64,000 nt of DNA from the NCBI GenBank assembly GCA_965219455.1, contig OZ244744.1:1408001-1472000 (forward strand), in the 5' to 3' direction. Each line of letters starts with the position of its first letter. Position 1 is the first letter of the stretch. A program made the translations under genes and the position numbers. Below, piece after piece: positions 11,708 through 46,150 of this stretch. This stretch comes from Candidatus Latescibacterota bacterium. GTDB taxonomy: Bacteria > Latescibacterota > UBA2968 > GCA-2709665. The notes beneath the pieces are model-generated. The model saw only the letters and a list, made by a program, of their open reading frames with translations. It was not told the origin of the DNA and made no database searches.

Positions 11708-11763
11708 AAGGATCGTCCGGCGTCGAGGGCGCCGGAATCTCACTTAGCGGCCCGAGGCTGCAA

Positions 11764-11979: not shown

Positions 11980-12021
11980 GGAGTCACCGGCTACTACCGC
12001 GCCCGCAAAGGAGGAAATTCA

Positions 12022-12798
12022 ATGAACTACGTGCCGTCTTTTTGCATCGTCGCGTTCATGGGTCTGGCGTCCACCGTTGCCGCGGAACGGCAGCCGTTTG
12101 AGGGACGGGTCGTGAACGGGAAGTCCCTTCCAATCCATCGGGCGCGGGTCGTGCTTTACAGGCTCGACAATCCGCGCGCGCGGCTGACGACCATCACGGA
12201 CGAAAACGGCGCCTTCTCGCTGCCCCTGAGAGACCTCGCCCCGCCGCGACCCAACGCACTGCGGCAGAACCATCCCAATCCGTTCAATCCCTCCACCCTC
12301 ATACCCTTCGAGATCTCGGAGGGTGGACACGTTCGCCTGGACGTGTTCAACATTCTGGGCCAACGCGTGGTCACGCTGATCGACGAAGAGCGCCCGGCCG
12401 GGTTTCACAGGGTGCTGTGGGACGGCACGGACGCTGTCGGCCGGGGCGTGAGCGCGGGGGTTTACATCTACCGGCTCAGCACCGGGAACTGGCGCGACGC
12501 GCGGAAATTGATGCTGCTCGACGGCGCATCGGAGCGTTCGGGCGGTGGAGCCTCGAATTTCAGCGAAGAAAAGGCTCACGCGTTCGGCGTGAGGATCACC
12601 GGCGAGGGAATATTGCCGGAAACCTTCACCTGGACCCCCGGCATGGGGTCCCTGGTGGCGGAGGTGAGACGTATCGAAGACATCCTTCCGCCCGAGGTCG
12701 AGCACCCCGATACGGCGGCCAATCCCTTCTCGGGGACCAGCCTCGCCTCGATTATCCAGGTTGTTTCCGCGTACGGCGTCGACCCCGGCGGGGATTGA
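12022..12798 (+). CDS. Secreted protein with carboxypeptidase-regulatory-like N-domain and internal FlgD-Ig/T9SS-A-like domain
   Basis: GGAGG RBS, signal peptide, GRVVNG..ARVVLY..TDENGAFSL, then LRQNHPNPFNPSTLIPFE..WDGTDAVGRGVSAGVYIYRL. Confidence 0.75.
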   Translation: MNYVPSFCIVAFMGLASTVAAERQPFEGRVVNGKSLPIHRARVVLYRLDNPRARLTTITDENGAFSLPLRDLAPPRPNALRQNHPNPFNPSTLIPFEISEGGHVRLDVFNILGQRVVTLIDEERPAGFHRVLWDGTDAVGRGVSAGVYIYRLSTGNWRDARKLMLLDGASERSGGGASNFSEEKAHAFGVRITGEGILPETFTWTPGMGSLVAEVRRIEDILPPEVEHPDTAANPFSGTSLASIIQVVSAYGVDPGGD

Positions 12799-13033
12799 GC
12801 CGGCCAAACCCATTCATCAAAGAAGCAAGATCACATGGCACATCGGAAATCGATCAAACCGGCATCGGCGGCGCTGGCCGGCCAGGATGGGGTGGTATTC
12901 GGCGCGGTCTGGCGCCAGGACTGACCGGGCAACTGTGGGAGAGGCCACCGCTGGCCCCAGGACCGAGGGCATCCTGCCTCGACATTGGCTCCTTGAGAAC
13001 CCCCCATTGCAATCCATGAAAGGGGACGTTGCC

Positions 13034-16732: not shown

Positions 16733-16880
16733 GCCCGGCATGGAGATCGCCGCCGACCGCATCCTCTCGGCCGGAATCGAGGCGGCGGCGGTCCTCAACC
16801 GGCCTTCATGAAAGTAATGGAGACGTTGCCATGCATTTGAAATCGACCCACCACCGGCCGGCCGGGCAACCGCTCCCGGC
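16427..16880 (+). repeat. Junction repeat J1 (sorting-domain coding + stop + stem-loop + MHLKST leader)
   Basis: Closely matches J2-J5 by direct comparison. Confidence 0.9.
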
Positions 16881-19800: not shown

Positions 19801-22800
19801 GACCGACGGCGACTCGGAGGACGACGTCACCGGCTACGCGATCACCGGCGGGGCGGATGAGGCGCTGTTCGAGATCGGGATGACGGACGGCGCCCTGACG
19901 TTCAAGACGGCGCCGAACTTCGAGGACGCCAAAGACCAGGGCACGAACAACACCTACGTGGTCGAGGTTACGGCGACCAGCGGCATGGGCGAGCGGGAGA
20001 AGACGGCGATGCAGACGATCACGGTGACGGTCACGGACGTGAGCGGCGAGAAGCCGGCCGCGCCGGCCGCGCCAACGGTGGCGGCCGCGTCGGTGACGAG
20101 CCTGACGGTGACGTGGACGAAGCCGGCCAACGCCGGTCCGGCCATCACCGACTACGACGTGCAGTACCGGGAGGGCACGAGCGGCAGCTGGACGGACGGC
20201 AACCACACCGGCGCCGACCTCACGGCGACGCTGTCGGGCCTGTCGGAGAACACGTCCTACCAGGTACAGGTGCGGGCGACCAACGACGAGGGTACGGGCT
20301 TGTGGTCGGCCTCGGGCACCGGCGCGACGGACGCCAACGCGGCGCCGTCGTTCAGCTCTTCGGCGACGTTCGACGCGGCGGAGAACCAGACCTCGGCGGG
20401 CACGGTGCTGGCGACGGACGGCGATTCGGATGATGACATCACGGGCTACGCGATCACCGGCGGGGCGGATGAGGCGCTGTTCGAGATCGGGATGACGGAC
20501 GGTGCCCTGACGTTCAAGACGGCGCCGAACTTCGAGGACGCCGAGGACCAGGGGACCGACAACACCTACGTCGTGACGGTGCAGGCGACGAGCGGCACGG
20601 GTGAGCGGGTGAAGACCGCCACGCAGACGATCACGGTGACGGTGACGGACGTGACCACGGAGGCGCCGGGCAAGCCGGACGCGCCGACGGTGTCGGCCGC
20701 CTCGGTGACGAGCCTGACGGTGACGTGGACGGCACCGGCCAACGCCGGTCCGGCCATCACCGACTACGACGTGCAGTACCGGGAGGGCACCACCGGCAAC
20801 TGGACGGACGGCAACCACAACGGCACCGCCACCACGGCGACGCTTTCGAGTCTGTCGGAGGGCACGTCGTACCAGGTGCAGGTGCGGGCGACCAACGACG
20901 AGGGCACGGGCGACTGGTCGGACTCGGGCAGCGGCACGACGGACGCCAACGCGTCGCCGACGTTCAGCTCGTCGGCGACGTTCGACGCGGCGGAGAACCA
21001 GACGGCGGCCGGCACAGTGCTGGCGACCGACGGCGACACGGACGACGACATCACCGGCTACGCGATCACCGGCGGGGCGGACCAGGCGTTCTTCTCGATC
21101 GTGCCGGCGACGGGCGCGCTGACCTTCAAGACGGCGCCGAACTTCGAGGACGCCAAAGACCAGGGCACGAACAACACCTACGTGGTCGAGGTGACGGCGA
21201 CCAGCGGCATGGGCGAGCGGGAGAAGACGGCGACGCAGACGATCACGGTGACGGTGACGGACGTGGCCGGCGAAGCGCCGGGCAAGCCGAATGCACCGGA
21301 CGTGGAGGCCGCGTCGGTGACGAGCCTGACGGTGACGTGGTCGGCGCCGGCCAACGCCGGCCCGGCAATCACCGACTACGACTATCGCTACCGGACGACC
21401 TCGCCGCAGGGCACGTGGACGGAGGTGACCGGCACGGCGATCACGGGGCTGTCGGCGACGATCGGGAGCCTGTCGGAGAACACGTCCTACGACGTGCAGG
21501 TGCGGGCGACCAACGCCGAGGGCACCGGCGACTGGTCGGACTCGGGAACCGGCGCGACGGACGCCAACGCGGCACCGTCGTTCACCTCGAATGCGGCGTT
21601 CGACGCGGCGGAGAACCAGACGGCGGCCGGCACGGTGGTGGCGACGGACAGCGATTCGGATGATGACATCACGGGCTACGCGATCACCGGCGGGGCGGAC
21701 CAGGCGTTCTTCTCGATCGTGCCGGCGACGGGCGCGCTGACCTTCAAGACGGCGCCGAACTTCGAGGACGCCAAAGACCAGGGCACGAACAACACCTACG
21801 TGGTCGAGGTGACGGCGACCAGCGGCGCGGGGACACGGGAGAAGACGGCGACGCAGACGATCACGGTGACGGTGACGGACGTGAACACCGAGGCGCCGGG
21901 CAAGCCGGCAGCGCCGACGGTGTCGGCGGCGGCGGCGACGAGCCTGAGCGTGAACTGGGCGGCGCCCGACAACGCGGGTCCGGCGATCACGGACTACGAC
22001 GTGCAGTACCGGGCAGGCACCAGCGGGGGCTGGAGCGATGGCAACCACAACGGCACGGCCACCACGGCGACGATCGGGAGCCTGTCGGAGAACACCTCCT
22101 ACCAGGTGCAGGTGCGGGCCAAGAACGCCGAGGGTACCGGCGACTGGTCGGCCTCGGGCAGCGGCACGACCGACGCCAACGCGGCGCCGTCGTTCAGCTC
22201 GTCGGCGACGTTCAGCGCGGCGGAGAACCAGACCACGGCGGGCACGGTGCGGGCGACGGACTCCGATGCGGATGACAGCATCACCGGCTACGCGATCACC
22301 GGCGGGGCGGACCAGGGTCGCTTCTCCATCGGGGCAACGTCGGGGGCGCTGACGTTCAACGATGCGCCCAACTTCGAGGCACCTTCGGACGCCAACACCG
22401 ACAACGACTACGTGGTGACCGTGCAGGCGACGAGCGGCACGGGGACGCGGGTAAAGACGGCGACGCAGACGATCACGGTGACGGTGACGGACGTGAACAC
22501 CGAGGCGCCGGGCAAGCCGGCAGCGCCGACGGTGGCGCCGGCGTCGGTGACGAGCCTGAGCGTGAACTGGGTGGCGCCGTCCAACGCCGGCCCGGCCATC
22601 ACCGACTACGACGTGCAGTACCGGGCGGGTACCAGCGGGGACTGGAGCGACGCGGGCCACAACGGCACCGCGGTCACGGCGACGATCGGGGGCCTGTCGG
22701 AGAACACCTCCTACCAGGTGCAGGTGCGGGCCAAGAACGCCGAGGGCACCGGCGACTGGTCGGACGCGGGCACCGGCGCGACGGGGCTAGCGCCGACCAA

Positions 22801-23440
22801 CAACCAGCCCAGCGAGATCAAGGCCTACTGGACCGATTCCGACACTAAAGGCAGCAACGTTCAGGAGGAATGCGACGGCACCGAGCCTTTCCGCGCCTTC
22901 TGGAATCCGCCGAAAAGCAACGGCAGCTTCAAGGTAGCCGACGAGTGGGAGGCTGAGATTACGCCCAAGAGCGGCGCCAGCAACGTGAGCTTCACCATAC
23001 AGAACACCGGCGGCAACCGTAGGGAACCCGAGCTGACCGGGACCGTCGAGATCGACGGCTTCAGCACGTTGAGCATGCGGGTCCGCGGGCGTTTCGGCGA
23101 CGACGGATGGGGCGCGTGGTCGCCGATAACAGGGTTGTTTTGCAGGACCTCGGCGTCCAAGAAGCCGCCGGGGCTCGCGCCGAATGCGCCCAACCCTTTC
23201 AACCCCAGCACCGTCATCTCCTATCGCCTGGACGTGGAAGGGCCGGTGCGCCTGGAGATCTACAACCTCCTCGGGCAGCGCATACGCGCACTGGTGGACG
23301 AGGTGCAGGCAGCCGGCGCCTACCAGGTGCAATGGGACGCCCGCGACGCGGCGGCGCGGCGCGTGTCATCGGGGGTGTATTTCATCCGCCTGCGCTATCC
23401 GGGCGGGGTGCAGACCCGGCGCATGCTCTACCTCGAGTAG
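16831..23440 (+). pseudogene. Array gene B: FN3 + LRR + 7x(cadherin-like/FN3) + sorting domain; frameshift at ~17758 (real lesion or assembly error)
   Basis: ORFs 16831-18120 and 17780-23440 join: B reads CAC AAC AAC G GTA GAC CCG where paralog C reads CGC GAA AAC ACC GTA GAC CCG (2 nt missing). Alternative start ATG 16927. Confidence 0.8.
18493..22780 (+). repeat. Seven ~612-618-bp tandem cadherin-like + FN3 units
   Basis: NAAP.F.S.ATFDAAENQ recurs near 18493, 19111, 19723, 20335, 20947, 21565 and 22177. Confidence 0.9.
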
Positions 23441-23590
23441 ACCCGGCATGGAGAACGCCGCCGCCCGCATCCTCTCGGCCGGAATCGAGCCGGCGGGCGG
23501 TCCTCAACCGGCCTTCATGATAGTAATGGAGAAGTTGCCATGCATTTGAAATCGACCGACCACCGGCCGGAACGGGCAATCGCCCCGGCA
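23151..23590 (+). repeat. Junction repeat J2
   Basis: Same sorting-domain/intergenic/ATGCATTTGAAATCGACC block as J1. Confidence 0.9.
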
Positions 23591-24207
23591 CAAATGTTCA
23601 CCCCCCCCCCGGATTTTTTCGGGGCCGCGCCTGAGCGGCGGCCATGACTCGTGGCATCAGACCGGTCCGGCTGCCCCGGGTTTCTGCCCTCGTTGCGGTC
23701 GCCCGGGTGGTCGCCGCCGCGGTGCTGCTCGTGCTCTCCGCCGCCCTTCCCGCCACGGCGCTGCCCCCCAGGCCGACGGGTTTCGCCGTGTCGAACGGCA
23801 ACGGGCAGGTGACGCTCACCTGGGACGCGCCGGCGGAGGACGCGGATATCTGGCACCACGAGTACCGCTTCAAGACCACGGGCGACTACAACGACTGGAA
23901 GAAGATCGACGACAGCGAGGTGGGCAAGAGCCACGAGGACTGGGTCGTGGTGACGGGCCTGACCAACGACGTGGCCTACACGTTCCAGTTGCGCATAGTG
24001 AACAGAGACGGCAACGGCAACGAGGTGACGGCCAGTCAGGCGACGCCGACGGACGGCTTCTGCGGCCGCACCGAGCAGGTGCGGCTCGAGATCATGAGGC
24101 AGATCTCCGGCGTGTCGGACTGCGCCGTCGTCACGTCGGCGCAACTGGCCGGCGTGATGTCTCTGGATTTCGCCTCTGTTGTCATCAAGTCCCTGCAGCC
24201 GGGCGAC

Positions 24208-24972
24208 TTCTCGGGCCTGACCGCGCTGACGGATCTCACTCTGAGCGGCAACGAGCTCAGTTTGCTTCCCGCCGGCGCGTTCTCCGGCCTGACCGCGCTG
24301 ACGGATCTCACTCTGAGCGACAACGAGCTCAGTTCGCTTCCCGCCGGCGCGTTCTCGGGCCTGACCGCGCTGACGGATCTCACTCTGAGCGACAACGAGC
24401 TCAGTTCGCTTCCCGTCGGCGCGTTCTCCGGCCTGACCGCGCTGAAAACGCTCAATCTGGACCGCAACGAGCTCCGTTCGCTTCCCGCCGGCGTGTTCTC
24501 CGGCCTGACCGCGCTGACGAATCTCGCTCTGGTCAGCAACGAGCTCCGTTCGCTTCCCGCTGGCGTGTTCTCCGACCTGACCGCGCTGACGGATCTCTCT
24601 CTCTTCCGCAACGAGCTCACCTCGCTTCCCGCTGGCGTGTTTTCCGACCTGACCGCGCTGACGACTCTCCGTCTGGAATCCAACGAGCTCAGTTCGCTTC
24701 CCGCCGGCGTGTTCTCCGACCTGACCGCGCTGACGTCGCTCCGTCTGCGTTACAACAAGCTCAGTTCGCTTCCCGCCGGTGTGTTCTCCCGCCTGACCGC
24801 GCTGACGACTCTCCGTCTGGGTTACAACGAGTTCACCTCGCTTCCCGCCGGTGTGTTCTCCCGCCTGACCGCGCTGACGAATCTCTCTCTGTTCGGCAAC
24901 AAGCTCAGTTCGCTTCCCGCCGGCGTGTTCTCCGACCTGACCGCGCTGACGGATCTCTATCTGCGCGAAAAC
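24208..24972 (+). repeat. Eleven 72-bp LRR repeats (24-aa typical-type LRR)
   Basis: LTALTxLxLxxNELSSLPAGVFSx recurring every 72 nt. Confidence 0.9.
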
Positions 24973-27900
24973 ACCGTAGACCCGCTGCCGCTGACCGTGA
25001 CGCTGGAGAGGAACCCGGATGCCGTCGAGATCCGCGCGGTGGTGCTGACCGCGGCGCCGTTCGCGGTTCCGCTGGTCGTGAGCGTGGCGAACGGCAGCCT
25101 CGCGGGCGGGGCGGCCACGATCACGGTTCCGACCGGTGCGCGGGAGAGCGCGTGGGTCGGCGTGACCCGCACGGACGGCACGGCCGGGGCGGTGACCGCG
25201 GACATCGACCTGACCCCCCAGCCGATCCTGCCCGACAAACACGATGGCTATGAGTTCGTCAAGTCCGCGAGCGACCTGCCGCTGACGGTGCTGGACGTGC
25301 CGGGCGCGCCGGCTGCGCCGTCGGTGTCGGCCGCGTCGTCCTCCAGCCTGACGGTCATGTGGTCGGCGCCGGACGACGGGGGCTCGGCGATCACGGACTA
25401 CGACGTGCAATACCGGGCAGGCACCAGCGGCGACTGGACGGACGGGAACCACGCCGGCACGGCCACCACGGCGACGCTCACGGGCCTTTCGGCGAGCACG
25501 TCCTATCAGGTGCAGGTGCGGGCGACCAACGCCGACGGCGCCGGCTCGTGGTCGGACTCGGGCAGCGGCAGGACGGAGGACGCCAACGCGGCCCCGACGT
25601 TCAGCTCACCGGCGACGTTTGACGCGGCGGAGAACCAGACCTCGGCGGGCGAGGTGGTGGCGACCGACAGCGATGCGGACGACGACATCACGGGCTACGC
25701 GATCACCGGCGGCGCGGACCAGAGTTTCTTCTCGATCGGGGCGACGTCCGGGGATCTGACGTTCGACGCGGCACCGAACTACGAGGACGCGCAGGACCAG
25801 GGCACCAACAACACCTACGTGGTCGAGGTGCAGGCGACCAGCGGCGCGGGCGAGCGGGAGAAGACGGCGACGCAGACGATCACGGTGACGGTGACGGACG
25901 TGAACACGGAGGCGCCGGGCAAGCCGGGCGCGCCGACGGTGACGACCGCGTCGGTGTCGAGACTGAGGGTGAACTGGTCGGCGCCGGCCAACGCGGGCCC
26001 GGCGATCACCGACTACGACTACCGCTACCGGGCGGGCAACAGCGGGGGCTGGACGGACGGCGGCCACGCCGGCACGGCGGTCACGGCGACGCTGACGGGC
26101 CTTTCGGAGGACACGTCGTACCAGGTGCAGGTGCGGGCCACGAACGCCGAGGGCACCGGCGCCTGGTCGGCCTCGGGCAGCGGCAGGACGGACGCCAACG
26201 CGGCACCGGCGTTCACATCGGATGCAGAGTTCGACGCAGCGGAGAACCAGACCACGGCGGGCACGATGCGGGCGACCGACTCCGATGCGGATGACGACGT
26301 CACGGGCTACGCGATCACGGGCGGGGCGGACCAGGGGTTCTTCTCCATCGGGGCGACGTCCGGGGCACTTACGTTCAACGATGCGCCCAACTTCGAGGAC
26401 GCGCAGGACCAGGGCAGCAACAACACCTACGTGGTGGAGGTTACGGCGACCAGCGGCGAGGGCGAGCGGGAGAAGACGGCGACGCAGACGATCACGGTGA
26501 CGGTGACGGACGTGAGCGGCGAGGCGCCGGGCAAGCCGGGCGCGCCGATGGTGGCGCCGGCGTCGGTGTCGAGCCTTTCGGTGAACTGGTCGGCGCCGTC
26601 CAACGCGGGTCCGGCGATCACCGACTACGACGTGCAGTACCGGGCGGGCACCAGCGGGGGCTGGAGCGACGGCACCCACAGCGGCACCGCGGTCACGACG
26701 ACGCTGACGGGCCTTTCGGAGAACACCTCCTACCAGGTGCAGGTGCGGGCCACCAACGCCGAGGGCACCGGCGACTGGTCGGAGTCGGGCAGCGGCGTGA
26801 CGGACGCCAACGCGGCGCCGTCGTTCAGCTCACCGGCGACGTTCGACGCGGCGGAGAACCAGACGGCGGCGGGCACGGTAGAGGCGACGGACTCCGACGC
26901 GGGCGACGACGTCACGGGCTACGCGATCACCGGCGGGGCGGACCAGGCGTTCTTCTCCATCGGGACGATGACGGACGGCGCCCTGACGTTCAACGATGCG
27001 CCCAACTTCGAGGACGCGCAGGACCAGGGCAGCAACAACACCTACGTGGTGGAGGTTACGGCGACCAGCGGCATGGGCGAGCGGGAGAAGACGGCGACGC
27101 AGACGATCACGGTGACGGTGACGGACGTGAACACCGAGGCGCCGGGCAAGCCGAATGCGCCGACGGTGTCGCCGGCGTCGGTGTCGAGCCTTTCGGTGAA
27201 CTGGTCGGCGCCGTCCAACGCGGGTCCGGCCATCACCGACTACGACGTGCAGTACCGGGCAGGCACCAGCGGGGCCTGGAGCGACGGCACCCACAACGGC
27301 ACCGCCATCACGGCGACGCTGACGGGCCTGTCGGAGAACACCTCCTACCAGGTGCAGGTGCGGGCCACGAACGACGAGGGCACGGGCTCGTGGTCGGAGT
27401 CGGGCTCGGGCCGCACGGACGCCAACGCGGCGCCGTCGTTCAGCTCCGCGGCGACGTTTAGCGCGGCGGAGAACCAGACGGCGGCCGGCACGGTGCTGGC
27501 GACGGACAGCGATGGGGATGACGACGTCACGGGCTACGCGATCACCGGCGGCGCGGACCAGGCGTTCTTCTCCATCGTGCCGGCGTCCGGGGCGCTGACG
27601 TTCAAGACGGCGCCGAACTTCGAGGACGCCAAAGACCAGGGGACCAACAACACCTACGTGGTGACGGTTCAGGCGACGAGCGGCATGGGGGAGCGGGTCA
27701 AGACGGCGACGCAGACGATCACGGTGACGGTGACGGACGTGAACACCGAGGCGCCGGGCAAGCCGGGCGCGCCGATGGTGGCGCCGGCGTCGGTGTCGAG
27801 ACTGACGGTGAACTGGTCGGTGCCGGCCAACGCGGGTCCGGCCATCACCGACTACGACGTGCAGTACCGGGAGGGCACGGGCGGCAGCTGGACGGACGGC

Positions 27901-29939
27901 AACCACACCGGCGCCGCCACCACGGCGACGATCGGGAGCCTGTCGGAGAACACGTCCTACGACGTGCAGGTGCGGGCGACCAACGCCGAGGGCACCGGCG
28001 CGTGGTCGGACGCGGGCACCGGCGCGACGGACGCCAACGCGGCCCCGTCGTTCAGCTCCGCGGCGACGTTCAGCGCGGCGGAGAACCAGACCACGGTGGG
28101 CACGGTGGTGGCGGCGGACTCCGATGCGGATGACAGCATCACCGGCTACGCGCTCAGTGGCGGGGCGGACCGGGATTTCTTCTCGATCGTGGCGGCGTCG
28201 GGGGCACTTACGTTCCAGTCGGCGCCGAACTTCGAGGACGCCAAGGACCTTGTGAGTGTCGATCCGGCCAATGCCGCCGGCAACAACCAGTACGTGGTGG
28301 AGGTTACGGCAACCAGCGGCATGGGGGAGCGGGAGAAGACGGCGACGCAGACGATCATGGTGAGAGTGACCGACTTGGACACCGAGGCCCCGGGCAAGCC
28401 GGGCGCGCCGACGGTGTCGGCGGCGTCGGTGTCGAGCCTGACGGTGACGTGGACGGCGCCGTCCAACGCGGGTCCGGCGATCACCGACTACGACTACCGC
28501 CACCGGACGACCTCGCCGGAGGGCACCTGGACGGAGGTGACCGGCACGACGATTACGGGGCTGTCGGCGACGATCGGGAGCCTGGAAGAGAACACGTCCT
28601 ACGACGTGCAGGTGCGGGCCAAGAACGACGAGGGCGCCGGCGACTGGTCGGACGCGGGCACCGGCGCGACGGACGCCAACGCGGCGCCGATGTTCAGCTC
28701 GGATGCGACGTTCATCGCGGCGGAGAACCAGACCACGGCGGGCACGGTGCTGGCGACCGACTCCGATGCGGATGACGACGTCACGGGCTACGCGATCACG
28801 GGCGGGGCGGACCAGGGGTTCTTCTCCATCGGGGCGACGTCCGGGGCGCTGACGTTCAACGATGCGCCCAACTTCGAGGACGCCAAGGACCAGGGCACCA
28901 ACAACACCTACGTGGTGGAGGTTACGGCGACCAGCGGCATGGGCGAGCGGGAGAAGACGGCGACGCAGACGATCACGGTGACGGTGACGGACGTGAGCGG
29001 CGAGGCGCCGGGCAAGCCGGGCGCGCCGATGGTGGCGCCGGCGTCGGTGTCGAGACTGACGGTGAACTGGTCGGTGCCGGCCAACGCGGGTCCGGCGATC
29101 ACCGACTACGACGTGCAGTACCGGGCGGGCACCAGCGGGGCCTGGAGCGACGGCACCCACAACGGCACCGCGGTCACGACGACGCTGACGGGCCTTTCGG
29201 AGAACACCTCCTACCAGGTGCAGGTGCGGGCCACCAACGCCGAGGGCACCGGCGACTGGTCGGAGTCGGGCAGCGGCGTGACGGACGCCAACGCGGCGCC
29301 GTCGTTCAGCTCACCGGCGACGTTCGACGCGGCGGAGAACCAGACGGCGGCCGGCACGGTGCTGGCGACGGACAGCGATGGGGATGACGACGTCACGGGC
29401 TACGCGATCACCGGCGGCGCGGACCAGGCGTTCTTCTCCATCGTGCCGGCGTCCGGGGCGCTGACGTTCAAGACGGCGCCGAACTTCGAGGACGCCAAAG
29501 ACCAGGGGACCAACAACACCTACGTGGTGACGGTTCAGGCGACGAGCGGCATGGGGGAGCGGGTCAAGACGGCGACGCAGACGATCACGGTGACGGTGAC
29601 GGACGTGAACACCGAGGCGCCGGGCAAGCCGGCAGCGCCGACGGTGTCGCCGGCGTCGGTGACGAGCCTGACGGTGACGTGGACGGCGCCGTCCAACGCG
29701 GGTCCGGCCATCACCGACTACGACGTGCAGTACCGGGCAGGCACCAGCGGGGCCTGGAGCGACGGCACCCACAACGGCACCGCCATCACGGCGACGCTGA
29801 CGGGCCTGTCGGAGAACACCTCCTACCAGGTGCAGGTGCGGGCCACGAACGACGAGGGCACGGGCTCGTGGTCGGAGTCGGGCTCGGGCCGCACGGACGC
29901 CAACGCGGCGCCGTCGTTCAGCTCCGCGGCGACGTTTAG

Positions 29940-31826
29940 CCTCTAATTAAGCGGGTTTTTTGAGATTTTTATGTACAAAAGTACCGGAAAGACTTATCTT
30001 AGTTGGAGTTAGAAGTATCAGACAGTCTGTTGATACACCAACGAAGGGGGTCTTTCCGGTGAAGAGAATATCGGTAAAAGAAAGCCGCAGGAACAGTGTT
30101 AATTGTGGGCGCAAGGTACGTACTCGGCAAAAGCTTGGCGGTCGTTTTTGTGCACAAGGCAAGCCGATGTTTGGCAGCACCTATGTGCATTACGAGGTCA
30201 GCGCGCAAGCAGCAGCGATGAGCTGCGGTGGCATTGCGGCCGTGCATCGTCTGGTGACCAAATTGGGATTGGTCGAAGAGATAGACGAGAAGTTGAAGTT
30301 GTTGAAGGTTCATCTGCCGTATCATGAGTCGGATCACGTGTTGAACCTTGCCTACAACGTGATGTGCGGTGGCACGCGTCTGGAAGACATCGAGCGTTTG
30401 CGGCACGACGAGGCCTACATGAATGCGTTGAACGCGAAGCTGATCCCGGACCCGACGACTGCGGGCGACTTTACGCGTCGCTTCACGGAAGCTGACGTGA
30501 TCGGGCTGATGGACTGCATTAACGCGGTACGGTCTAAGTTGTGGCGCACGCGGGCCGCCAGTTTGCTTTCTTCGGTAGCGTACATCGACGTGGATGGCAC
30601 AAGCGCCCCAACGTATGGGGAGAAGAAGGGCGGCATGGACATCTCCTACAAGGGCGTGTGGGGGTATGCGCCCCTGATCGTATCGTTGGCCAATACCAAA
30701 GAGGTGCTGTATATCGTCAACCGTCCGGGCAACGCGTCTTCTCACCAGGGGGCCGCCCCCTGGATCGATGCGTCCATCCGGGTGGTGAAGCCCCACGCCA
30801 AGCGCGTGTGCCTACGCGGCGACACGGACTTTTCGCTTACGGCTCACCTCGATCGCTGGGCAAAGGACGTCGATTTCATCTTCGGGATGGACTGCAATGA
30901 CGCCTTACGAACACGGGCCAAGGCCCTTGACGAAGCCAACTGGCAGCGCCTGCACCGACCTCACGCGCCCCAGAAAAGGCAGCGGCGCGACAATGAGAAG
31001 CAGCGTATCGTCAAGGCGCGGGGCTACCTCAAGCTGGCGCTGAACTTCGAAGACGTGGCCGAGTTTGACTACCAGCCCGGCAAGTGCAAACGCCCCTACC
31101 GCGTTGTGGCGCTGCGAAAAAACATCAGTAAGGCCAAAGGTGAGCAGACCCTCTTCGACGAAATCCGCTATTTCTTCTACATCACCACGCGCGACGACCT
31201 GACGCCCGCCGAGGTCGTCTTTGCTGCCAACAAACGATGCGACCAGGAAAACGTCATCGAACAGCTCAAGAACGGCGTCAATGCCCTGCGCGTGCCCTTG
31301 TATGACTTGATCAGCAACTGGGCCTACATGGTCATCGCCGCGCTGGCCTGGAACATCAAGGCGTGGTTTGCCTTGATGATGCATCGAAAAAAACACCGCC
31401 GACACTATATCCGTATGGACTTCCGGACCTTCCTCTCACACATCATCCTTTTTCCCTGTCGTGTCGTGCGACACGCCCGAAGCACCACCGTGCGCATCAT
31501 CGGCTATCAGCCGTCACTGAATAGACTCTTGAGCGCCTGGGCTACCATCGAACGCACCGGCTTCACATGACACCCGCACGAACCGTCATCACATACCACG
31601 GGATCCACGACGCCCACGGCGACGTAACGGACAAATACGCCTACACCACAACCAGACACCAACAACACACCCCTAACGCTGCGCTTTACCACACCAACTT
31701 ACACTCCACAAACCTCAAAACGACCTCCCGCGCACCTCAATAGACAACACACATACGTCATTCAACCACAACGTCGCACAAATCTGCAATTCTGTTCACC
31801 AAACACCAATACTCGCTTATTTTAGG
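29940..31826 (+). mobile_element. IS1380-family insertion sequence, 1887 bp, 5-bp TSD TTTAG
   Basis: TTTAG at 29935-29939 and 31827-31831; imperfect TIRs CCTCTAATTAAGCGGGT / ACTCGCTTATTTTAGG; lower GC than the host gene. Confidence 0.93.
29960..31570 (+). CDS. IS1380-family DDE transposase (start codon uncertain)
   Basis: YHESDHVLNLAYN, PDPTTAGDFTRRF, IDVDGT, YKGVWGYAPL, RPGN, LRGDTDF and RCDQENVIEQLKNG motifs typical of IS1380 transposases. Confidence 0.92.
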   Translation: MRFLCTKVPERLILVGVRSIRQSVDTPTKGVFPVKRISVKESRRNSVNCGRKVRTRQKLGGRFCAQGKPMFGSTYVHYEVSAQAAAMSCGGIAAVHRLVTKLGLVEEIDEKLKLLKVHLPYHESDHVLNLAYNVMCGGTRLEDIERLRHDEAYMNALNAKLIPDPTTAGDFTRRFTEADVIGLMDCINAVRSKLWRTRAASLLSSVAYIDVDGTSAPTYGEKKGGMDISYKGVWGYAPLIVSLANTKEVLYIVNRPGNASSHQGAAPWIDASIRVVKPHAKRVCLRGDTDFSLTAHLDRWAKDVDFIFGMDCNDALRTRAKALDEANWQRLHRPHAPQKRQRRDNEKQRIVKARGYLKLALNFEDVAEFDYQPGKCKRPYRVVALRKNISKAKGEQTLFDEIRYFFYITTRDDLTPAEVVFAANKRCDQENVIEQLKNGVNALRVPLYDLISNWAYMVIAALAWNIKAWFALMMHRKKHRRHYIRMDFRTFLSHIILFPCRVVRHARSTTVRIIGYQPSLNRLLSAWATIERTGFT

Positions 31827-34800
31827 TTTAGCGCGGCGGAGAACCAGACGGCGGCCGGCACGGTGCTGGCGACGGACAGCGATGGGGATGACGACGTCAC
31901 GGGCTACGCGATCACCGGCGGCGCGGACCAGGCGTTCTTCTCCATCGTGCCGGCGTCCGGGGCGCTGACGTTCAAGACGGCGCCGAACTTCGAGGACGCC
32001 AAAGACCAGGGGACCAACAACACCTACGTGGTGACGGTTCAGGCGACGAGCGGCATGGGGGAGCGGGTCAAGACGGCGACGCAGACGATCACGGTGACGG
32101 TGACGGACGTGAACACCGAGGCGCCGGGCAAGCCGGGCGCGCCGATGGTGGCGCCGGCGTCGGTGTCGAGACTGACGGTGAACTGGTCGGTGCCGGCCAA
32201 CGCGGGTCCGGCCATCACCGACTACGACGTGCAGTACCGGGAGGGCACGGGCGGCAGCTGGACGGACGGCAACCACACCGGCGCCGCCACCACGGCGACG
32301 ATCGGGAGCCTGTCGGAGAACACGTCCTACGACGTGCAGGTGCGGGCGACCAACGCCGAGGGCACCGGCGCGTGGTCGGACGCGGGCACCGGCACGACGG
32401 ACGCCAACGCGGCCCCGTCGTTCAGCTCCGCGGCGACGTTCAGCGCGGCGGAGAACCAGACCACGGTGGGCACGGTGGTGGCGGCGGACTCCGATGCGGA
32501 TGACAGCATCACCGGCTACGCGCTCAGTGGCGGGGCGGACCGGGATTTCTTCTCGATCGTGGCGGCGTCGGGGGCACTTACGTTCCAGTCGGCGCCGAAC
32601 TTCGAGGACGCCAAGGACCTTGTGAGTGTCGATCCGGCCAATGCCGCCGGCAACAACCAGTACGTGGTGGAGGTTACGGCAACCAGCGGCATGGGGGAGC
32701 GGGAGAAGACGGCGACGCAGACGATCATGGTGAGAGTGACCGACTTGGACACCGAGGCCCCGGGCAAGCCGGGCGCGCCGACGGTGTCGGCGGCGTCGGT
32801 GTCGAGCCTGACGGTGACGTGGACGGCGCCGTCCAACGCCGGCCCGGCAATCACCGACTACGACTATCGCTACCGGACGACCTCGCCGCAGGGCACGTGG
32901 ACGGAGGTGACCGGCACGGCGATCACGGGGCTGTCGGCGACGATCGGGAGCCTGTCGGAGAACACGTCCTACGACGTGCAGGTGCGGGCGACCAACGCCG
33001 AGGGCACCGGCGACTGGTCGGACTCGGGCAGCGGCGCGACGGACGCCAACGCGGCGCCGGCGTTCAGCTCTTCGGCGACGTTCGACGCGGCGGAGAACCA
33101 GACGGCGGCGGGCACGGTGGTGGCGACGGACGGCGATGCGGGCGACGACATCACGGGCTACGCGATCACCGGCGGGACGGATGAGGCGCTGTTCGAGATC
33201 GGGATGACGGACGGCGCCCTGACGTTCAAGACGGCGCCGAACTTCGAGGACGCCAAAGACCAGGGCACGAACAACACCTACGTGGTCGAGGTGACGGCGA
33301 CCAGCGGCATGGGCGAGCGGGAGAAGACGGCGACGCAGACGATCACGGTGACGGTGACGGACGTGGCCGGCGAAGCGCCGGGCAAGCCGAATGCACCGGA
33401 CGTGGCGGCCGCCTCGGTGACGAGCCTGACGGTGAACTGGTCGGCGCCGTCCAACGCGGGTCCGGCGATCACCGACTACGACTACCGGCACCGGACGACC
33501 TCGCCGCAGGGCACATGGACGGAGGTGACCGGCACGGCGATCACGGGGCTGTCGGCGACGATCGGGAGCCTGGCGGAGAACACGTCCTACGACGTGCAGG
33601 TGCGGGCGACCAACGACGAGGGGACGGGCTCGTGGTCGGACTCGGGCAGCGGCGCGACGGACGCCAACGCGGCACCGACGTTCAGCTCGTCGGCGACGTT
33701 CGACGCGGCGGAGAACCAGACGGCGGCCGGCACAGTGCTGGCGACCGACAGCGATTCGGATGATGACATCACGGCCTACGCGATCACCGGCGGGGCGGAC
33801 CAGGCGTTCTTCTCGATCGGGGCGACGGACGGCGCGCTGACCTTCAAGACGGCGCCGAACTTCGAGGACGCCAAGGACGCGGACACCGATAACGAGTACG
33901 AAGTGACGGTACAGGCGACGAGCGGCACGGGCACGCGGGTAAAGACGGCGACCCAGACGATCACGGTGACGGTCACGGACGTGAGCGGCGAAGCGCCGGG
34001 CAAGCCGGCCGCGCCGACGGTGGTGCCGGCGTCGGTGACGAGCCTGACGGTGAACTGGTCGGCGCCGGCCAACGCGGGCCCGGCGATTACGGACTACGAC
34101 GTGCAATACCGGGCGGGCACGAGCGGCAGCTGGACGGACGGCAACCACACCGGCGCCGCCCTCACGGCGACGCTGTCGAGTCTGTCGGAGAACACGTCCT
34201 ATCAGGTACAGGTGCGGGCGACCAACGACGAGGGCACCGGCGACTGGTCGGACTCGGGAACCGGCGCGACGGACGCCAACGCGGCGCCGTCGTTCAGCTC
34301 GTCGGCGACGTTCGACGCGGCGGAGAACCAGACGGCGGCCGGCACGGTGCTGGCGACGGACGGCGACACGGACGACGACGTCACCGGCTACGCGATCACC
34401 GGCGGGGCGGACCAGGCGTTCTTCTCGATCGGGGCGACGTCGGGCGTGCTGACGTTCCAGTCGGCGCCGAACTTCGAGGACGCCAAGGACGCGGACACCG
34501 ACAACGAGTACGAAGTGACGGTACAGGCGACGAGCGGCACGGACACGCGGGTAAAGACGGCGACCCAGGCGATCACGGTGACGGTCACGGACGTGAGCGG
34601 CGAGAAGCCGGCCGCGCCGGCCGCGCCAACGGTGGCGGCCGCCTCGGTGACGAGCCTGACGGTGAACTGGTCGGCACCGGCCAACGCCGGTCCGGCCATC
34701 ACCGACTACGACGTGCAGTACCGGGCGGGCACGAGCGGGAGCTGGAGCGACGGGGGCCACAGCGGCACGGCCACCACGGCGACGCTGACGGGCCTCTCGG

Positions 34801-35850
34801 AGAACACGTCCTACCAGGTGCAGGTGCGGGCCACGAACGACGAGGGAACCGGCGACTGGTCGGACGCGGGCTCTGGCGCGACGGACGCCAACGTGGCGCC
34901 CGTGTTCAGTTCACCGGCGACGTTCAGCGCGGCGGAGAACCAGACGGCGGCGGGCACGGTGGTGGCGACGGACAGCGATTCGGATGATGACATCACGGCC
35001 TACGCGATCACCGGCGGGGCGGACCGGGCGTTCTTCTCGATCGTGCCGACGACGGGCGCGCTGAACTTCAAGACGGCGCCGAACTTCGAGGACGCCAAAG
35101 ACCAGGGCGCCAACAACACGTACGTGGTGACGGTGCAGGCGACGAGCGGCACGGGGGAGCGGGTCAAGACCGCCACGCAGACGATCACGGTCACGGTGAC
35201 CGACGTGAACACGGAGGCGCCGGGCAAGCCGGCCGCACCGACGGTGTCGGCGGCGTCGGCGACCAGCCTGACGGTGAACTGGTCGGCACCGGCCAACGCC
35301 GGTCCGGCCATCACCGACTACGACGTGCAGTACCGGGAGGGCGCGAGCGGCAGCTGGAGCGACGGGGGCCACAGTGGCACGGCCACCACGGCGACGCTGA
35401 CGGGCCTCTCGGAGAACACGTCCTACCAGGTGCAGGTGCGGGCGACGAACGCCGAGGGAACCGGCGACTGGTCGGACTCGGGCTCTGGCGCGACGGACAT
35501 CAACCAGCCCAGCGAGATCAAGGCCTACTGGACCGATTCCGACACTAAAGGCAGCAACGGTCAGGAGGAATGCGACAGCACCGAGCCTTTCCGCGCCTTC
35601 TGGAATCCGCCGAAAAGCAACGGCAGCTTCAAGGTAGCCGACGAGTGGGAGGCTGAGATTACGCCCAAGAACGGCGCCCGCAACGTGAGCTTCACCATAC
35701 AGAACACCGGCAGGAACCGTAAGGAACCCGAGCTGACCGGGACCGTCGAGATCGACGGCCGCAGTACGCTGAGCATACGGGTCCGCGGGCGTTTCGGCGA
35801 CGACGGATGGGGCGCGTGGTCGCCGATAACAGAGTTGTTTTGCAGGAACT

Positions 35851-36290
35851 CGGCGTCCAAGAAGCCGCCGGGCCTGGCGCCCAACGCGCCCAACCCCTTC
35901 AACGCCACCACTCTCATCCCATATCGCCTGGACACGGACGGACCGGTGCGCCTGGTCATTTACAACCTCCTCGGGCAGTCCATTCGCACCCTGGTGGACG
36001 AGGTGCAGGCCGCCGGCGCCTACCGGGTGTCCTGGGACGCCCGCGACGCAGCGGGGCGGCGCGTGTCCACGGGAATTTATTTCACGCGCCTGTACTATCC
36101 GGGCGGCGTGCAGACCCGGCGCATGCTCTACCTCGAGTAGGCCCGGCATGGAGATCGCCGCCGACCGCATCCTCTCGGCCGGAATCGAGCCGGCGGCGGT
36201 CCTCAACCGGCCTTAATGAAAGGAAAAGGAGACGTTTCCCATGCATTTGAAATCGACCAGCCACCGACCTGACGGGCAACCGACATCGGC
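35851..36290 (+). repeat. Junction repeat J3
   Basis: Same block as J1 and J2. Confidence 0.9.
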
Positions 36291-38571
36291 ACGTGATGAA
36301 GGAGCCATGATGACTCGCACCGATAGACGACGATTCCCCATCCTGTTCGCCGCCATAGCGGCGCTGGCCCTGGCGATGGCCCTGCTGTTCTCTCCGGTCC
36401 AGGCCCAGGAGGGCTCGGCGCCCGACCAGCCCACGGGCCTCTCCGCCACGGCGACCCACGACCAGGTGGTCCTCACCTGGGACGACCCGGGCGACGCCAG
36501 CATCACCGGCTACGTCATCCTGCGGCGCGTGAACAATACCGGGGGCGAGTTCAGTGAGCTCGTGGCGGACACGGGGACGGCGGCGACCACCTACACCGAC
36601 GCTACCGTAAAGGCCAATACTACCTACACCTACCGCATCAAGGCGACCAACGAGCACGGGGTGAGCGAGCGTTCCCGCTGGTTCCACATCAACGTCCCGG
36701 CAGCCCCTGAGCCGGAGGAGGAGCAGGCCCCCGAACCGCCCGACCAGCCCACGGGCCTGGACGCCACGGCGACCCACGACCAGGTGGTCCTGACCTGGGA
36801 CGACCCTGACGACGACACCATCACCGGCTACGTCATCCTGCGGCGCGTCCGCGTGAACGATACCGGGGGCGAGTTCAGTGTGCTGGTGGCGGACACGGGG
36901 ACGGCGGCGACCACCTACACCGACGCTACCGTAAAGGCCAATACTACCTACACCTACCGCATCAAGGCCATCAACAAACACGGGGTGAGCGAGCGCTCCC
37001 GCTGGTTCCACATCGACACGCCGGCCGCGCCGGAGGCCGGCGAAGGCGACGACCAGGACGAGCAGGACGGCGGCGCGCCCGGCCATGCCACGCCGCCCGG
37101 TCCCGGCGGGCGGGCGAACGTCTCGGAGCCCGACGGCGAAGACCTGCCCGAAGGCATCACCACCACCGGTAGAGTTGAGGTCGGCGGTTCGGTCACGGGC
37201 GAAATCGCCCCAGCTCTCGACGTCGACTGGTTCGCGGTCGAGCTGAAGAAGGGCAAGCGATACCAGTTCGACGTGGAGGGGGCGGACACCGGCCGAGGCA
37301 ACTTGGCGGATCCGCATCTTTGGGGGTTGCAGGATGCGGAAGGACAGGCGATATCCGGTGCGAGGAGTAACGACGGCGGTGTGGGGAAGAACGGCCGGGT
37401 CATCAACACGCCCGACGCGGAAGGCACCTACTACATAGCTGTGTCCGGCGCAGCCAACACGACGGGCACCTACACGCTGTCGGTGATCGTGCTGGGCGCG
37501 AACGGCGTCTCGGAGGCCGACACGGACTTTCCCAGAACCACCGCCACCACAGGCCGGGTCGAGGTCGGGGCCTCGGCCACGGGCAACATCGACCCTGGCG
37601 ACGATTTGGACGGGTTCCGTGTCAATCTGGAGGCGGGCAAGCGATACCGGTTCGACCTGGAGGGCGCGGACACCGGCCGCGGCTCCCAGGCGGACCCGAT
37701 CCTGGCGCTCTACGGCGACTCCTTCAACGTCTCCCACTACATTGATGAGGACGACGACGGCGGCGAGGGACTTAACAGCCGACTGACCTACACGGCGACC
37801 GCGACCGGCGCCTACCACCTGGAAGTAGCGGGCTTGGACCCAGGCACCTACACGCTGTCGGTGCGTAGAATTTTGGTGGCAGTTGCCGTTCCGCCCGGCG
37901 GTCTGGGTCCCTCGGAGGTCCCGGGCGCGGTCCGCAATGTGCAGGTGTCCGGTACAGAACGAACGAGAGTCGTGTATTGGGACGCGCCGGACGAGACCCA
38001 AACCGGCGCGCAATGGATCACGGAGTTCCGCATCTACGCCTCAACCGGTGCGGGTTGCGATGGTTGGAAGGCGGCCGAATACGAGGTGGAGCACCCCGGA
38101 TTCACCACACCCCCAGAGCACCCCGACGGCACCCCGACGGGTTTCAGATACTTCAAGATCGTCGAGGTGGCAAGCGATGTAGCTGGTTCAGACGGTTTCT
38201 CAGTTCAATTCGGCGTGAGCGCGGTCAACGATCTCGGTGAAGGGCCATGCGTGGGTGAGCCCGCCCCGGCGTCCAAGCCGGCGCTCGCGGACGGGCCGCC
38301 GGGCCTGGCGCCCAACGCGCCCAACCCCTTCAACGCCACCACTCTCATCCCATATCGCCTGGACACGGACGGACCGGTGCGCCTGGAGATCTACAACCTC
38401 CTCGGGCAGTCCATTCGCACCCTGGTGGACGAGGTGCAGACCGCCGGCTCCTACCGGGTGTCCTGGGACGCCCGCGACGCAACGGGGCGGCGCGTGTCCA
38501 CGGGAATTTATTTCACGCGCCTGCACTATCCGGGCGGCGTGCAGACCCGGCGCATGCTTTACCTCGAGTAG
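36241..38571 (+). CDS. Array gene D: 2 FN3 + 2 PPC-like domains + FN3-like domain + sorting domain (alternative start 36307)
   Basis: Signal peptide ..LLFSPVQA-Q, GAAGGAG RBS before 36307, DVDWFAVEL..GTYYIAV PPC-like repeats, C-terminal PNPFNATT..RRMLYLE. Confidence 0.88.
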   Translation: MHLKSTSHRPDGQPTSARDEGAMMTRTDRRRFPILFAAIAALALAMALLFSPVQAQEGSAPDQPTGLSATATHDQVVLTWDDPGDASITGYVILRRVNNTGGEFSELVADTGTAATTYTDATVKANTTYTYRIKATNEHGVSERSRWFHINVPAAPEPEEEQAPEPPDQPTGLDATATHDQVVLTWDDPDDDTITGYVILRRVRVNDTGGEFSVLVADTGTAATTYTDATVKANTTYTYRIKAINKHGVSERSRWFHIDTPAAPEAGEGDDQDEQDGGAPGHATPPGPGGRANVSEPDGEDLPEGITTTGRVEVGGSVTGEIAPALDVDWFAVELKKGKRYQFDVEGADTGRGNLADPHLWGLQDAEGQAISGARSNDGGVGKNGRVINTPDAEGTYYIAVSGAANTTGTYTLSVIVLGANGVSEADTDFPRTTATTGRVEVGASATGNIDPGDDLDGFRVNLEAGKRYRFDLEGADTGRGSQADPILALYGDSFNVSHYIDEDDDGGEGLNSRLTYTATATGAYHLEVAGLDPGTYTLSVRRILVAVAVPPGGLGPSEVPGAVRNVQVSGTERTRVVYWDAPDETQTGAQWITEFRIYASTGAGCDGWKAAEYEVEHPGFTTPPEHPDGTPTGFRYFKIVEVASDVAGSDGFSVQFGVSAVNDLGEGPCVGEPAPASKPALADGPPGLAPNAPNPFNATTLIPYRLDTDGPVRLEIYNLLGQSIRTLVDEVQTAGSYRVSWDARDATGRRVSTGIYFTRLHYPGGVQTRRMLYLE

Positions 38572-38715
38572 GCCCGGCATGGAGATCGCCGCCGACCGCA
38601 TCCTCTCGGCCGGAATCGAGCCGGCGGCGGTCCTCAACCGGCCTTCATGAAAGTAATGGAGAAGTTGCCATGCATTTGAAATCGACCGACCACCGGCCGG
38701 AACGGGCAATCGCCA
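38266..38715 (+). repeat. Junction repeat J4
   Basis: Same block; sorting-domain allele nearly identical to J3. Confidence 0.9.
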
Positions 38716-38736
38716 TCGGCACGTGATGAAGGAGCC

Positions 38737-41700
38737 ATGATGATTCGCACCGGCAGACGACGATTCTCCATCCTGTTCGCGGCCATCGCGGCCCTGGCCC
38801 TGCTCTTCCCGGTCCAGGCCCAGGAGGGCTCGGCGCCGGCCAAGCCCAGGGGGCTCTCCGCCACGGCGTCCCATGACCAGGTGGTCCTCACCTGGGACGA
38901 CCCAGGTGACGACAGCATCACCGGCTACGTGATCCTGCGCCGCAACCGCCAGACCGACCGAAAGGGCGAGTTCAGAGAATTAGTGCCGGACACGGGCACC
39001 GCCGCGACCAGCTACACCGACGACAGGGTGGCGGCTGGCACTCCCTATACCTACCGCATCAAGGCCATCAACAAACACGGGGTGAGCGAGCGCTCCCGCT
39101 GGTTCCACGTCGACACGCCGGCGGCCCCCGAGCGGCCCGACAAGCCCAGGGGCCTGGACGCCACGGCGACCCACGACCAGGTGGTCCTCACCTGGGACGA
39201 CCCGGGCGACGACAGCATCACCGGCTACGTCATCCTGCGGCGCGTGCGCGTGAACAATACCGGGGGCGAGTTCAGTGAACTGGTGGAGGACACGGGGACA
39301 GCGGCGACCACCTACACCGACGCTACCGTAAAGGCCAATACTACCTACACCTACCGCATCAAGGCCATCAACAAACACGGGGTGAGCGAGCGCTCCCGCT
39401 GGTTCCACATCGACACGCCGGCCGCGCCGGAGGCCGTCGAAGGCGACGCCCCCGACGAGCAGGACGGCGGCGCGCCCGGCCATGCCACGCCGCCCGGTCC
39501 CGGCGGGCGGGCGAACGTCTCGGAGGGCAACACCGACCTGCCCGAAGGCACCACCACCACCGGCGAGGTGGACGTCGGTGGCTCGGTCACGGGGAACGTC
39601 GATAGGGACGCCGACGTCGACTGGTTCCGCGTCGAGTTGGAGGCGGACACGAGATACCAGTTCGACGTGGAGGGGGCGGATACCGGCCGCGGCAACTTGG
39701 CGGATCCGTTTCTTTGGGGGTTGTATGATGCGGGAGGACAGGCGATATCCGGTGCGAGGAGCAACGATGGCGGTGTGGGCAAAAACGGCCGTGTTATCTA
39801 CACGCCCACGGCGGACGGCACCTACTACATAGCTGTGTCCGGCACAGCCACCACGACCGGCACCTACACGCTGTCGGTGATCGTGCTGGGCGCGAACGGC
39901 GTCTCGGAGGCCGACACGGACTTTCCCGCCACCACCGCCACCACCGGCCGGGTCGACGTCGGGGCCTCGGTCACGGGCACCATCAGCAACGCAGACTACG
40001 ACTATTTCCGCGTCGATCTGGAGGCGGGCAAGACCTACCAGTTCGACCTGGAAGGGGCGGATTCCGGCCGCGGCACCTTGGTAGACCCGTTCCTGTCGCT
40101 CTATGACGGGTCCGCAACCTTCCTTCTCGCAGACGACGACAGCGGCACGAACCTCAACAGCCAGATGGTCTACAATGCGGCCTCGGCCGGCGCCCACTAC
40201 CTCAGGGCCACCACTGGTGCTGCCAACCTCACGGGCACCTACACGCTGTCGGTGGGCGGCGAGACGCCGATGCTCTCGACGGACGCGACGCTGAGCGGGC
40301 TGTCGCTGGGCACGGGGGTGACGCTGAGCCCGGCCTTCGCCTCGGGCACGGTCACCTACACGGCGTCGGTCGCCAACAGCGTCGACGAGGTGACGGTGAC
40401 GCCGACGACGAACCACGCCAGCGCGACGGTCGAGATTCTAGACACGGACGACATGGAGGACGACTTCCAGGTGGCGCTGTCGGTGGGCGACACCGTCATC
40501 AAGGTGAAGGTGACGGCCGAGGACGGCACCTCGACGCAGACCTACACGGTGACCGTGACGCGCGACGACTTTCCCAACGACAACAACACCACCGGCGAGG
40601 TCGAGGTGGGCGGCACAGTAACGGGCAACATCGGGACGGTCGGCGACTACGACCGGTTCAAAGTGGAACTGGAGGCGGGTACGCGATACCAGTTGGATCT
40701 GGAGGGCGCGGACACCGACCGGGGCACCCTGGCGGACCCGCACCTGGGCCTCTACGACGCGATCGGGAGCCACCTTCAGGGTGACAACGGCCAAAGGGGC
40801 GACGACAACAGCGGCGTGGGCGTCAACGCCCGGATGATCTACACCCCGGCCGCGTCCGGCGACTTCTACCCAGTGGTGACCGAAATCAATGACAATCGTA
40901 CCGGCACCTACACGCTGTCGGTGATCGTGCTGGGCGCGAACGGCGCCTCGGAGGCCGACACGGACTTTCCCGCCGACAACACGACCTCCGGCCGGGTCGA
41001 GGTCGGCGCATCGGCCACGGGCAACATCGGCATCGCCAATGACTATGACTGGTTCCGCGTCGATCTGGAGGCGGGCAAGACCTACCAGATCGACCTGAAG
41101 GGCATTGGTGGCGGCGGCGGCACCTTGGAAAACCCTTATCTGCTCAATATCCGCGACTCATCCGGCACCGAGATTGACGGCACCGAGAATGACGATGTCG
41201 ACCCCTCTAACGACATCTACGACAGCCAGACCGTCTACACGCCGACCGCGGCCGGCACCTACTACCTGGTAGCGGTTAGCGGGGTCACCGGGGGAACGGG
41301 CACCTACACGCTGTCGGTGCGTGACATCACGACGCCGCCATGCACGCTGAACACGGGCGACATCTGGTGCGGCGCGGTGACGGTGGCAGAGATCAAGACT
41401 GCCGACGACGCGCTTGTCGGACACGGTTTTGTTGATGGAGGTGGCCTCAGCGCGGGCAGCCTTGCCGGCTACCCTGACGAAACGGTGTTCTCGGTCGGGG
41501 ACAACGACTACACGATCCAAGGCGCTTACATCCAAGTCCCAACTGCGGAACACCTCACGGGCACCCTGTCCGTCGTGCTCACCGCCGATCTCACCGACGA
41601 TGACAAGGCGGGCCTGCTGCTCCCGGTCGACGGCACCACCACCCCATTCGAGTTCAGCGATGCCGCCAAAGGGGGCACCACCGGCCTCTACTCTTGGGGT

Positions 41701-45939: not shown

Positions 45940-46150
45940 AGAAGCACCCGGTGTCTCCCCCGGCATCGGACGCCTTTTCATGCGCCCGTAGCGCACGGTA
46001 GGATGGGACTCGTGCGGAACAGAAAACTCGTTGCATCGCAATGATTTTTCCGGGAGCACCCATGTTTCGGGTTGTCTGACCGAGGCGTTTTGTTTTAATT
46101 CTGGCTGTTCTGAGAAATCCAATTTCACAGCCTTATCAAAGGAGCGTACA

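Follow-up and report, generated by a model that had tools for sequence, protein, structure and literature searches.

Of published systems, those closest to the one considered here are secreted or surface proteins built from exchangeable parts. The KLIKK protease clusters of Tannerella forsythia place a near-identical tail on unlike passengers (PMC4404884, PMC7014623). In the inlG-inlC2-inlD-inlE region of Listeria monocytogenes, inlH combines the 5' end of inlC2 with inlD's 3' end, likely through recombination (PMC3977354). Type IX secretion system (T9SS) cargo in Porphyromonas gingivalis shows domain rearrangement, gene conversion, and inter-lineage exchange, with a mosaic unrelated to the core phylogeny (PMC5266723), and sponge-associated Latescibacterota encode eukaryotic-like repeat proteins with LRR, FN3, and WD40 domains (PMC12993501). 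The locus examined here belongs to a Candidatus Latescibacterota bacterium (assembly GCA_965219455.1) and lies in a window of 64,000 nucleotides (nt) of contig OZ244744.1 (positions 1,408,001 to 1,472,000; window coordinates count from its first letter), in which a head-to-tail series of five genes, A to E, occupies 13033-45918 of the plus strand (Table 1) and encodes large predicted secreted surface proteins, all with a sorting domain at the C terminus. The tails, linkers, leaders, and internal repeats of these genes form a mosaic that very probably reflects generic homologous crossover and conversion in a tandem, adhesin-like array.

The array is like the KLIKK clusters in carrying a common tail across unlike passengers, but the latter are proteases of Bacteroidota with a small lipoprotein gene before each, whereas the array's passengers consist of LRR, FN3, cadherin, and PPC modules, its shared block extends over spacer and leader, and its host is not a member of the Bacteroidota; the word 'recombination' is absent from PMC4404884. 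With Listeria it has in common tandem LRR surface-protein genes bearing a sorting signal, and the inlH collapse is akin to a remnant found in a relative (G013, below), although the Listeria proteins are anchored to a Gram-positive wall and the case is one fusion event, with no shared junction block (PMC3977354). P. gingivalis is similar in that T9SS cargo has diversified by rearrangement and exchange, yet its genes are mostly dispersed and belong to one species, whereas here a tandem array sits in an island found across genera (PMC5266723). The LRR, FN3, and WD40 domains of sponge-associated Latescibacterota occur in the window as well; that study, however, counts domains, and its main text lacks the words 'secretion', 'cadherin', and 'FlgD' (PMC12993501). 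Literature searches yielded no description of the array locus and, in a search that took in few subscription journals, no paper linking T9SS and Latescibacter. The array offers a well-resolved example of repeat-rich surface proteins assembled by recombination in an uncultured phylum. The mechanism is textbook and comparable T9SS cargo mosaics have already been published; the most notable aspects of the array are the apparent sharing of an island across genera and a possibly motor-less exporter.

The window sits on one contig of 5,844,228 bases. In Gram-positive wall anchoring the signal is LPXTG; in A to E it is a 91-residue C-terminal domain that exceeds the 23-bit cut-off of TIGR04183, the T9SS type-A sorting domain, in 5 of 5 cases (39.2, 38.8, 33.4, 35.0, and 36.9 bits from A to E). 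Genome-wide the sorting domain has 23 matches, of which the A to E copies are 87-100% identical to that of E and the remaining 18 at most 56%, and the closest named records carrying an array-type tail are Ca. Latescibacterota without exception.

An earlier note, made from the letters of the window, held that B and C share their N-terminus, stalk, and SKKPPG linker and not their sorting-domain allele, which C would instead share with D. Both statements stand. Of the 363 nt that make up the SKK linker and the final domain of the passenger, 14 differ between B and C, as against 40 of 276 nt in the sorting domain (Fisher p 2.3e-6), and the proportion of synonymous differences (pS) is 0.032 in the end domain and 0.244 in the tail. 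C and D, compared over sorting domain and spacer (35864-36213 versus 38295-38644), show 8 differences in 350 nt, with a tail pS of 0.033. The four motifs that the note had cited each occur exactly twice in the window where it had placed them: at 35907/38338 and 36066/38497 in the C/D sorting domains, at 23558/38688 in the C/E leaders, and at 36285/38715 in the D/E leaders. Linkers track passengers (B=C; A=D=E). When the four internal junctions are aligned, 65 informative sites fall into 2 runs where 27.9 are expected (p 5e-6); 19 linker sites form one split, and the stretch that starts with the sorting domain and ends with the signal peptide has 46 of 46 sites in another, which pairs junction A-B with B-C and C-D with D-E. 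Because the linkers compared are non-homologous, the 19 linker columns mark the edge of homology, and the one clean breakpoint in these junctions is this linker/sorting-domain edge. Tail, spacer, and the start of the next gene mostly move as one, and the step falls where homology starts. The C/D match may have arisen by conversion, or it may be what is left of a duplication, with a unit that began at one sorting domain and took in the passenger after it; the simplest recent event would be conversion of one of the C and D tails by the other.

Trees of different segments had been predicted to conflict, and they do: among 20 sorting domains a C+D clade is recovered with support of 99/95, and a B+C clade is rejected (approximately unbiased (AU) test, p 0.0033). 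The pairwise homoplasy index (PHI), computed at three window sizes, gives p values of 0.001, 0.0012, and 0.074 for the five window tails plus that of G013, and 1e-4, 1e-4, and 0.039 for all 20 tails. Tail differences stand at 30.4 nt within loci (23 pairs) versus 42.5 nt between loci (167 pairs), pairs of kin not being independent; in these counts L030 is excluded as a duplicate of the G016 stretch, and L028 and L029, which lie on one contig, are counted as two loci.

The leaders of C and E share a 63-nt exact match (23522/38652), beyond which E follows D. The tract comprises a run of 15 polymorphic columns (p 5e-5 uncorrected, in a test in which all 6 junction pairs have p <0.014), and the evidence for the patch comes from some 3 informative positions, identified by eye, which the MAFFT alignment of the four junctions placed otherwise. 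The E leader, described in the earlier note as chimeric, does have a C-like 5' part and a D-like 3' part, but the pattern has no polarity: the 5' state of E is present in G016 too and the D states occur in L027 and L031, so either leader may be the recombinant one. Separately, an upstream ATG (MHLKST) with a ribosome-binding-site-like motif is found at 16831, 23540, 36241, and 38670; B and D have it in the reading frame of the signal peptide, C and E in a different frame. B/C-type leaders also hold a poly-C tract (near 23602-23611 in C) whose length varies among B, C, G015, and L027; slipped-strand switching may take place there. As to expression of the array, no RNA dataset is listed as carrying the locus.

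Similar patterns are present within the passengers. The stalks of B and C are built of ~612-bp cadherin/FN3 units, and in a comparison of 16 units cut from the 20-21 copies, the others being omitted, 9 of the 25 top-listed identical tracts join B and C (global p <0.03). Unit C7 follows B2 and afterwards B4, and B and C share identical stretches of 196 and 181 nt. Part of this sharing may be inherited from the duplication that produced B and C. On sequence grounds, exchange is array-wide and the junction is not special: the claim that crossovers fall inside the junction is qualified by the clean breakpoint at the linker/sorting-domain edge, and stalk repeats and passenger modules are equally mosaic.

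Close junction copies are present in 3 of the 40 relatives compared, with 1 tail in G013, 3 in G015, and 4 in G016, beside the 5 of the window. G013, of the same genus, has no intact member; what is left is the very end of the A coding sequence, a hybrid tail whose 5' half resembles A and whose 3' half resembles C/D, and the downstream flank of E, and the flank beyond this remnant is colinear over 8 kb at 90.6%. Crossover within the tail would be expected to yield such a remnant. Between two and four tails are present in G015, G016, L027, and L031, along with modules that are shared with the array but reordered, one gene combining D/E-type FN3, B/C-type LRR, and an E-type end PPC; the map of these modules omits the middle modules of A, and homology to A in G015 comes from a separate comparison. 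The 5' part of gene O shows 89-91% identity to its counterparts in G015 and G016, as compared with 73% for ppk, so that the island looks to be passed between genera horizontally, and some donors may be island copies in other cells. For gene O, and likewise for the N-terminal region of D, 2 of 40 relatives had a match; neither belongs to the genus, whose own members gave 0 of 14.

Several further features of these loci deserve mention in their own right. In G016, two members (L025; G016:C1 923008-926845) have a common deletion that fuses the leader to mid-PPC and hence lack a signal peptide, duplication of this unit having come after the deletion. The same locus includes an additional gene inside the array (930458-931277), which we take to resemble a Cache-type domain. 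In G015, the last tail is followed by another start of the 12022-type gene, in truncated form (L023; G015:C1 3213469-3213701), which by eye is closer to the G016 copy than to G015's own; exchange involving the first tail probably left it behind. The TonB receptor downstream of E has close copies in 4 of 40 relatives only (96, 90, 90, and 87%), other full-length matches being at most 61%, and in G015 it is located far from the array.

Export by a T9SS-like route is suggested by the tail together with SprA, PorV-family, and below-cut-off PorU-like genes. The N-termini, as candidate Sec signal peptides, are basic and then hydrophobic, with AQA/ATA-like ends (read by eye). SprA_N scores 106.8 bits in a 2121-amino-acid frame (translocon SprA), 4 of 5 matches to the family of the shuttle PorV lie above the cut-off, and the gene resembling the sortase PorU reaches 213 bits against a cut-off of 420. 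Their presence in a member of the Latescibacterota could be of interest to those who study secretion; in the genome of the window (G000), the SprA, PorV-family, and PorU-like genes are located at G000:C1 5712966-5714327, 3843254-3843853, and 3763606-3768597, respectively.

Under homologous crossover and conversion, each member would be a leader, a modular adhesin-like passenger, and a T9SS type-A sorting domain, and repeats of 80-97% identity (the sorting domain-spacer-leader block of ~470 bp, and FN3, PPC, LRR, and cadherin modules) would serve as substrates of homologous recombination. Unequal crossover would grow or collapse the array and re-pair passengers with tails, conversion tracts, some of them from island copies in other cells, would patch the repeats, and the C/D match would mark a recent event spanning the sorting-domain start through the spacer. 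The genome encodes recA and mutS, and RecA would presumably be the agent; domain content points to a function in adhesion, and the direction and order of events can be proposed from the patterns described. Switch points vary, from the start of the tail in the window to the middle of the tail in G013 and the leader in the case of E; this is expected without a fixed site. Recombination among repeats is supported as the sole reading that fits the data, and represents familiar gene-family evolution. The mosaic that the earlier note offered as direct evidence of exchange is thus real, but the exchange is deduced from sequence patterns and is not direct.

Much of the junction pattern could also be accounted for by two tandem duplications only (A-BC-DE to A-B-C-D-E), with each unit comprising one sorting domain and everything up to the end of the following gene's passenger, and no later exchange: all 46 of 46 tail-to-signal-peptide sites fit such a history, the linkers follow the passengers, and the phase recurs in G016, where the two tails most alike (8 differences) both precede the same deleted leader. 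Duplication without exchange predicts even divergence, however, whereas pS along the C-D/D-E unit is 0.033 for the C/D tail and then 0.31, 0.06, 0.22, and 0.28 along four successive D/E blocks, so that events of different ages are needed. Likewise, an A/B tail pS of 0.26 stands beside the low value of the B/C end domain, and the 63-nt C/E tract and the stalk mosaic are left unexplained. As the sole cause, duplication is largely refuted by the uneven pS and is quite improbable; the duplication phase is probably an older layer of the array's history, and the junction phase is the trace expected from duplication via unequal crossover at the tail start. It is very unlikely that the mosaic is an artefact of assembly, with repeat copies swapped or strains merged, even with a genome rated 8.49% contaminated, public runs holding many related alleles at high depth, a frameshift in B, a 1-kb near-exact repeat inside C, and a C junction that is unbridged among the contig pieces listed. 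A swap by the assembler is unlikely because the locus lies on a single contig, the longest exact match between junction copies is 92 nt, and two contigs bridge the joins with zero mismatches: one from run X10 at 38201-38455, from D passenger to tail (depth 2.5), and one from run X7 at 38669-38838, across both halves of the E leader. X10 and X7 belong to two different studies, of which at most one can be the source sample, the bridging comparison left out the B-C junction and the stalk, and the same kind of mosaic arises independently in relatives.

A system dedicated to shuffling at the junction, whether it resembled an integron or a shufflon or was driven by a reverse transcriptase, would suit the cassette-like layout, the conserved GC-rich spacer with its modest folding (z of -1.7 to -2.4 for four spacers and -0.7 for the terminal one), and the linker/tail edge as the position of the cleanest breakpoint in both B/C and D/E. 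It is nonetheless extremely unlikely: the nearest of 5 tyrosine recombinase matches lies ~0.96 Mb off, the switch points are scattered, the genes all run in the same direction, and the linker edge is simply the start of homology. No serine resolvase was found in the genome (the control matched in 12 of 14), 0 of 16 RVT_1 matches fall within ~270 kb of the array, which leaves it without the linked reverse transcriptase of a diversity-generating retroelement (a trans-acting template was not searched for), and no Rfam families occur in 11700-46200. A recombinase, resolvase, or reverse transcriptase dedicated to shuffling near the array was accordingly rejected, none having been found, as was structured RNA in the spacers, given weak folding and no Rfam match. 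Elsewhere in the genome, nine of the 16 reverse-transcriptase matches lie in 463-amino-acid frames with near-equal scores, and these probably represent an expanded group II intron, the class itself being putative.

Several results weigh against homologous crossover and conversion as set out above, or against parts of it. The passenger-to-tail join of C is unbridged among the 32 contig pieces listed (15745 further); runs X1, X7, and X10 hold other alleles of the B/C end domain, which stop at 35804-35843, and X1 and X10 continue past 35843 with non-fitting letters, so they are uninformative on C's own join. A second assembly of the same species was looked for and none was found, which leaves current rearrangement without support. 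In the 20-tail tree, the AU test rejects neither D+E (0.078) nor A+B (0.168), clades that are not supported either, nor all five together (0.069). PHI on the five window sorting domains is not significant (p 0.11, 0.23, and 0.79 at the three window sizes), and within-tail recombination argued from the five window copies alone was dropped. Permutation tests, moreover, presume even constraint, and conserved stretches inflate them. With regard to export, the T9SS motor proteins GldM and GldN were not found in the genome, where the control queries also matched nowhere; GldK and GldL were not searched for.

A more far-reaching joint reading is doubtful, namely that the array is a surface-protein assembly hub common to Latescibacterota genera that rearranges fast enough to vary within one host population. 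That the tail-spacer-leader block would act as a universal homology arm, importing passengers and modules from other genera, is similarly unlikely, and a motor-less T9SS-like exporter, with variable poly-C that may switch members on or off, is a comparably speculative component of the same reading.

Table 1. Coordinates and content of the array and its neighbours in the 64,000-nt window
Feature	Position	Strand	Content
Gene O	7427-11707	+	Choice-of-anchor R, Calx-beta, FN3, LRR; without sorting domain; upstream part of island
Small gene	12022-12798	+	Distant internal sorting-domain-like segment; TIGR04183 31.7 bits; 47% amino-acid identity to array tail
Gene A	13033-16732	+	Leader, passenger with FN3 at end, PASKPALADG linker, sorting domain
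Gene B	16831-23440	+	FN3, LRR, cadherin/FN3 stalk, end domain, SKK linker, sorting domain
Junction B-C	23165-23643	+	Divergent sorting-domain allele of B, spacer, C leader; E leader has an identical copy of 23522-23584
Gene C	23644-36140	+	B paralogue with longer stalk; interrupted by an insertion sequence (IS)
IS1380-family element	29940-31826	+	1887 bp, 5-bp target duplication, within C stalk; NF033539 308 bits
Junction C-D	35864-36309	+	Sorting domain and spacer near-identical to D-E (8/350 differ), then divergent 5' leader of D
Gene D	36241-38571	+	Two FN3, two PPC, own end domain, PASKPALADG linker, sorting domain
Junction D-E	38295-38739	+	E leader matches C until about 38714, D from 38715
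Gene E	38737-45918	+	FN3, PPC, cadherin-like, Calx-beta, choice-of-anchor R modules, sorting domain
TonB-dependent receptor	46031-48676	+	Closes array downstream; also follows last tail in G013 and G016

The start of gene A was set at its MDLKST leader. The frame of gene B is broken near 17757, giving open reading frames (ORFs) at 16831-18120 and 17780-23440, through either a true frameshift or a sequence error, while gene C is stop-free outside the IS and contains internal exact repeats of 568 and 445 nt. The IS1380 element that breaks gene C has 6 copies in the genome, 100% identical, in keeping with a recent expansion. Between gene O and the 12022 gene, 11763-12010 is by eye an apparent deleted remnant of a gene that is intact in G015 and G016, where it has its own sorting domain. 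Further upstream, a WD40-repeat gene on the minus strand (2649-6637) is split into two ORFs, corresponding to one 1419-amino-acid ORF in G013, and its tail presumably resembles an EF-hand/dockerin.

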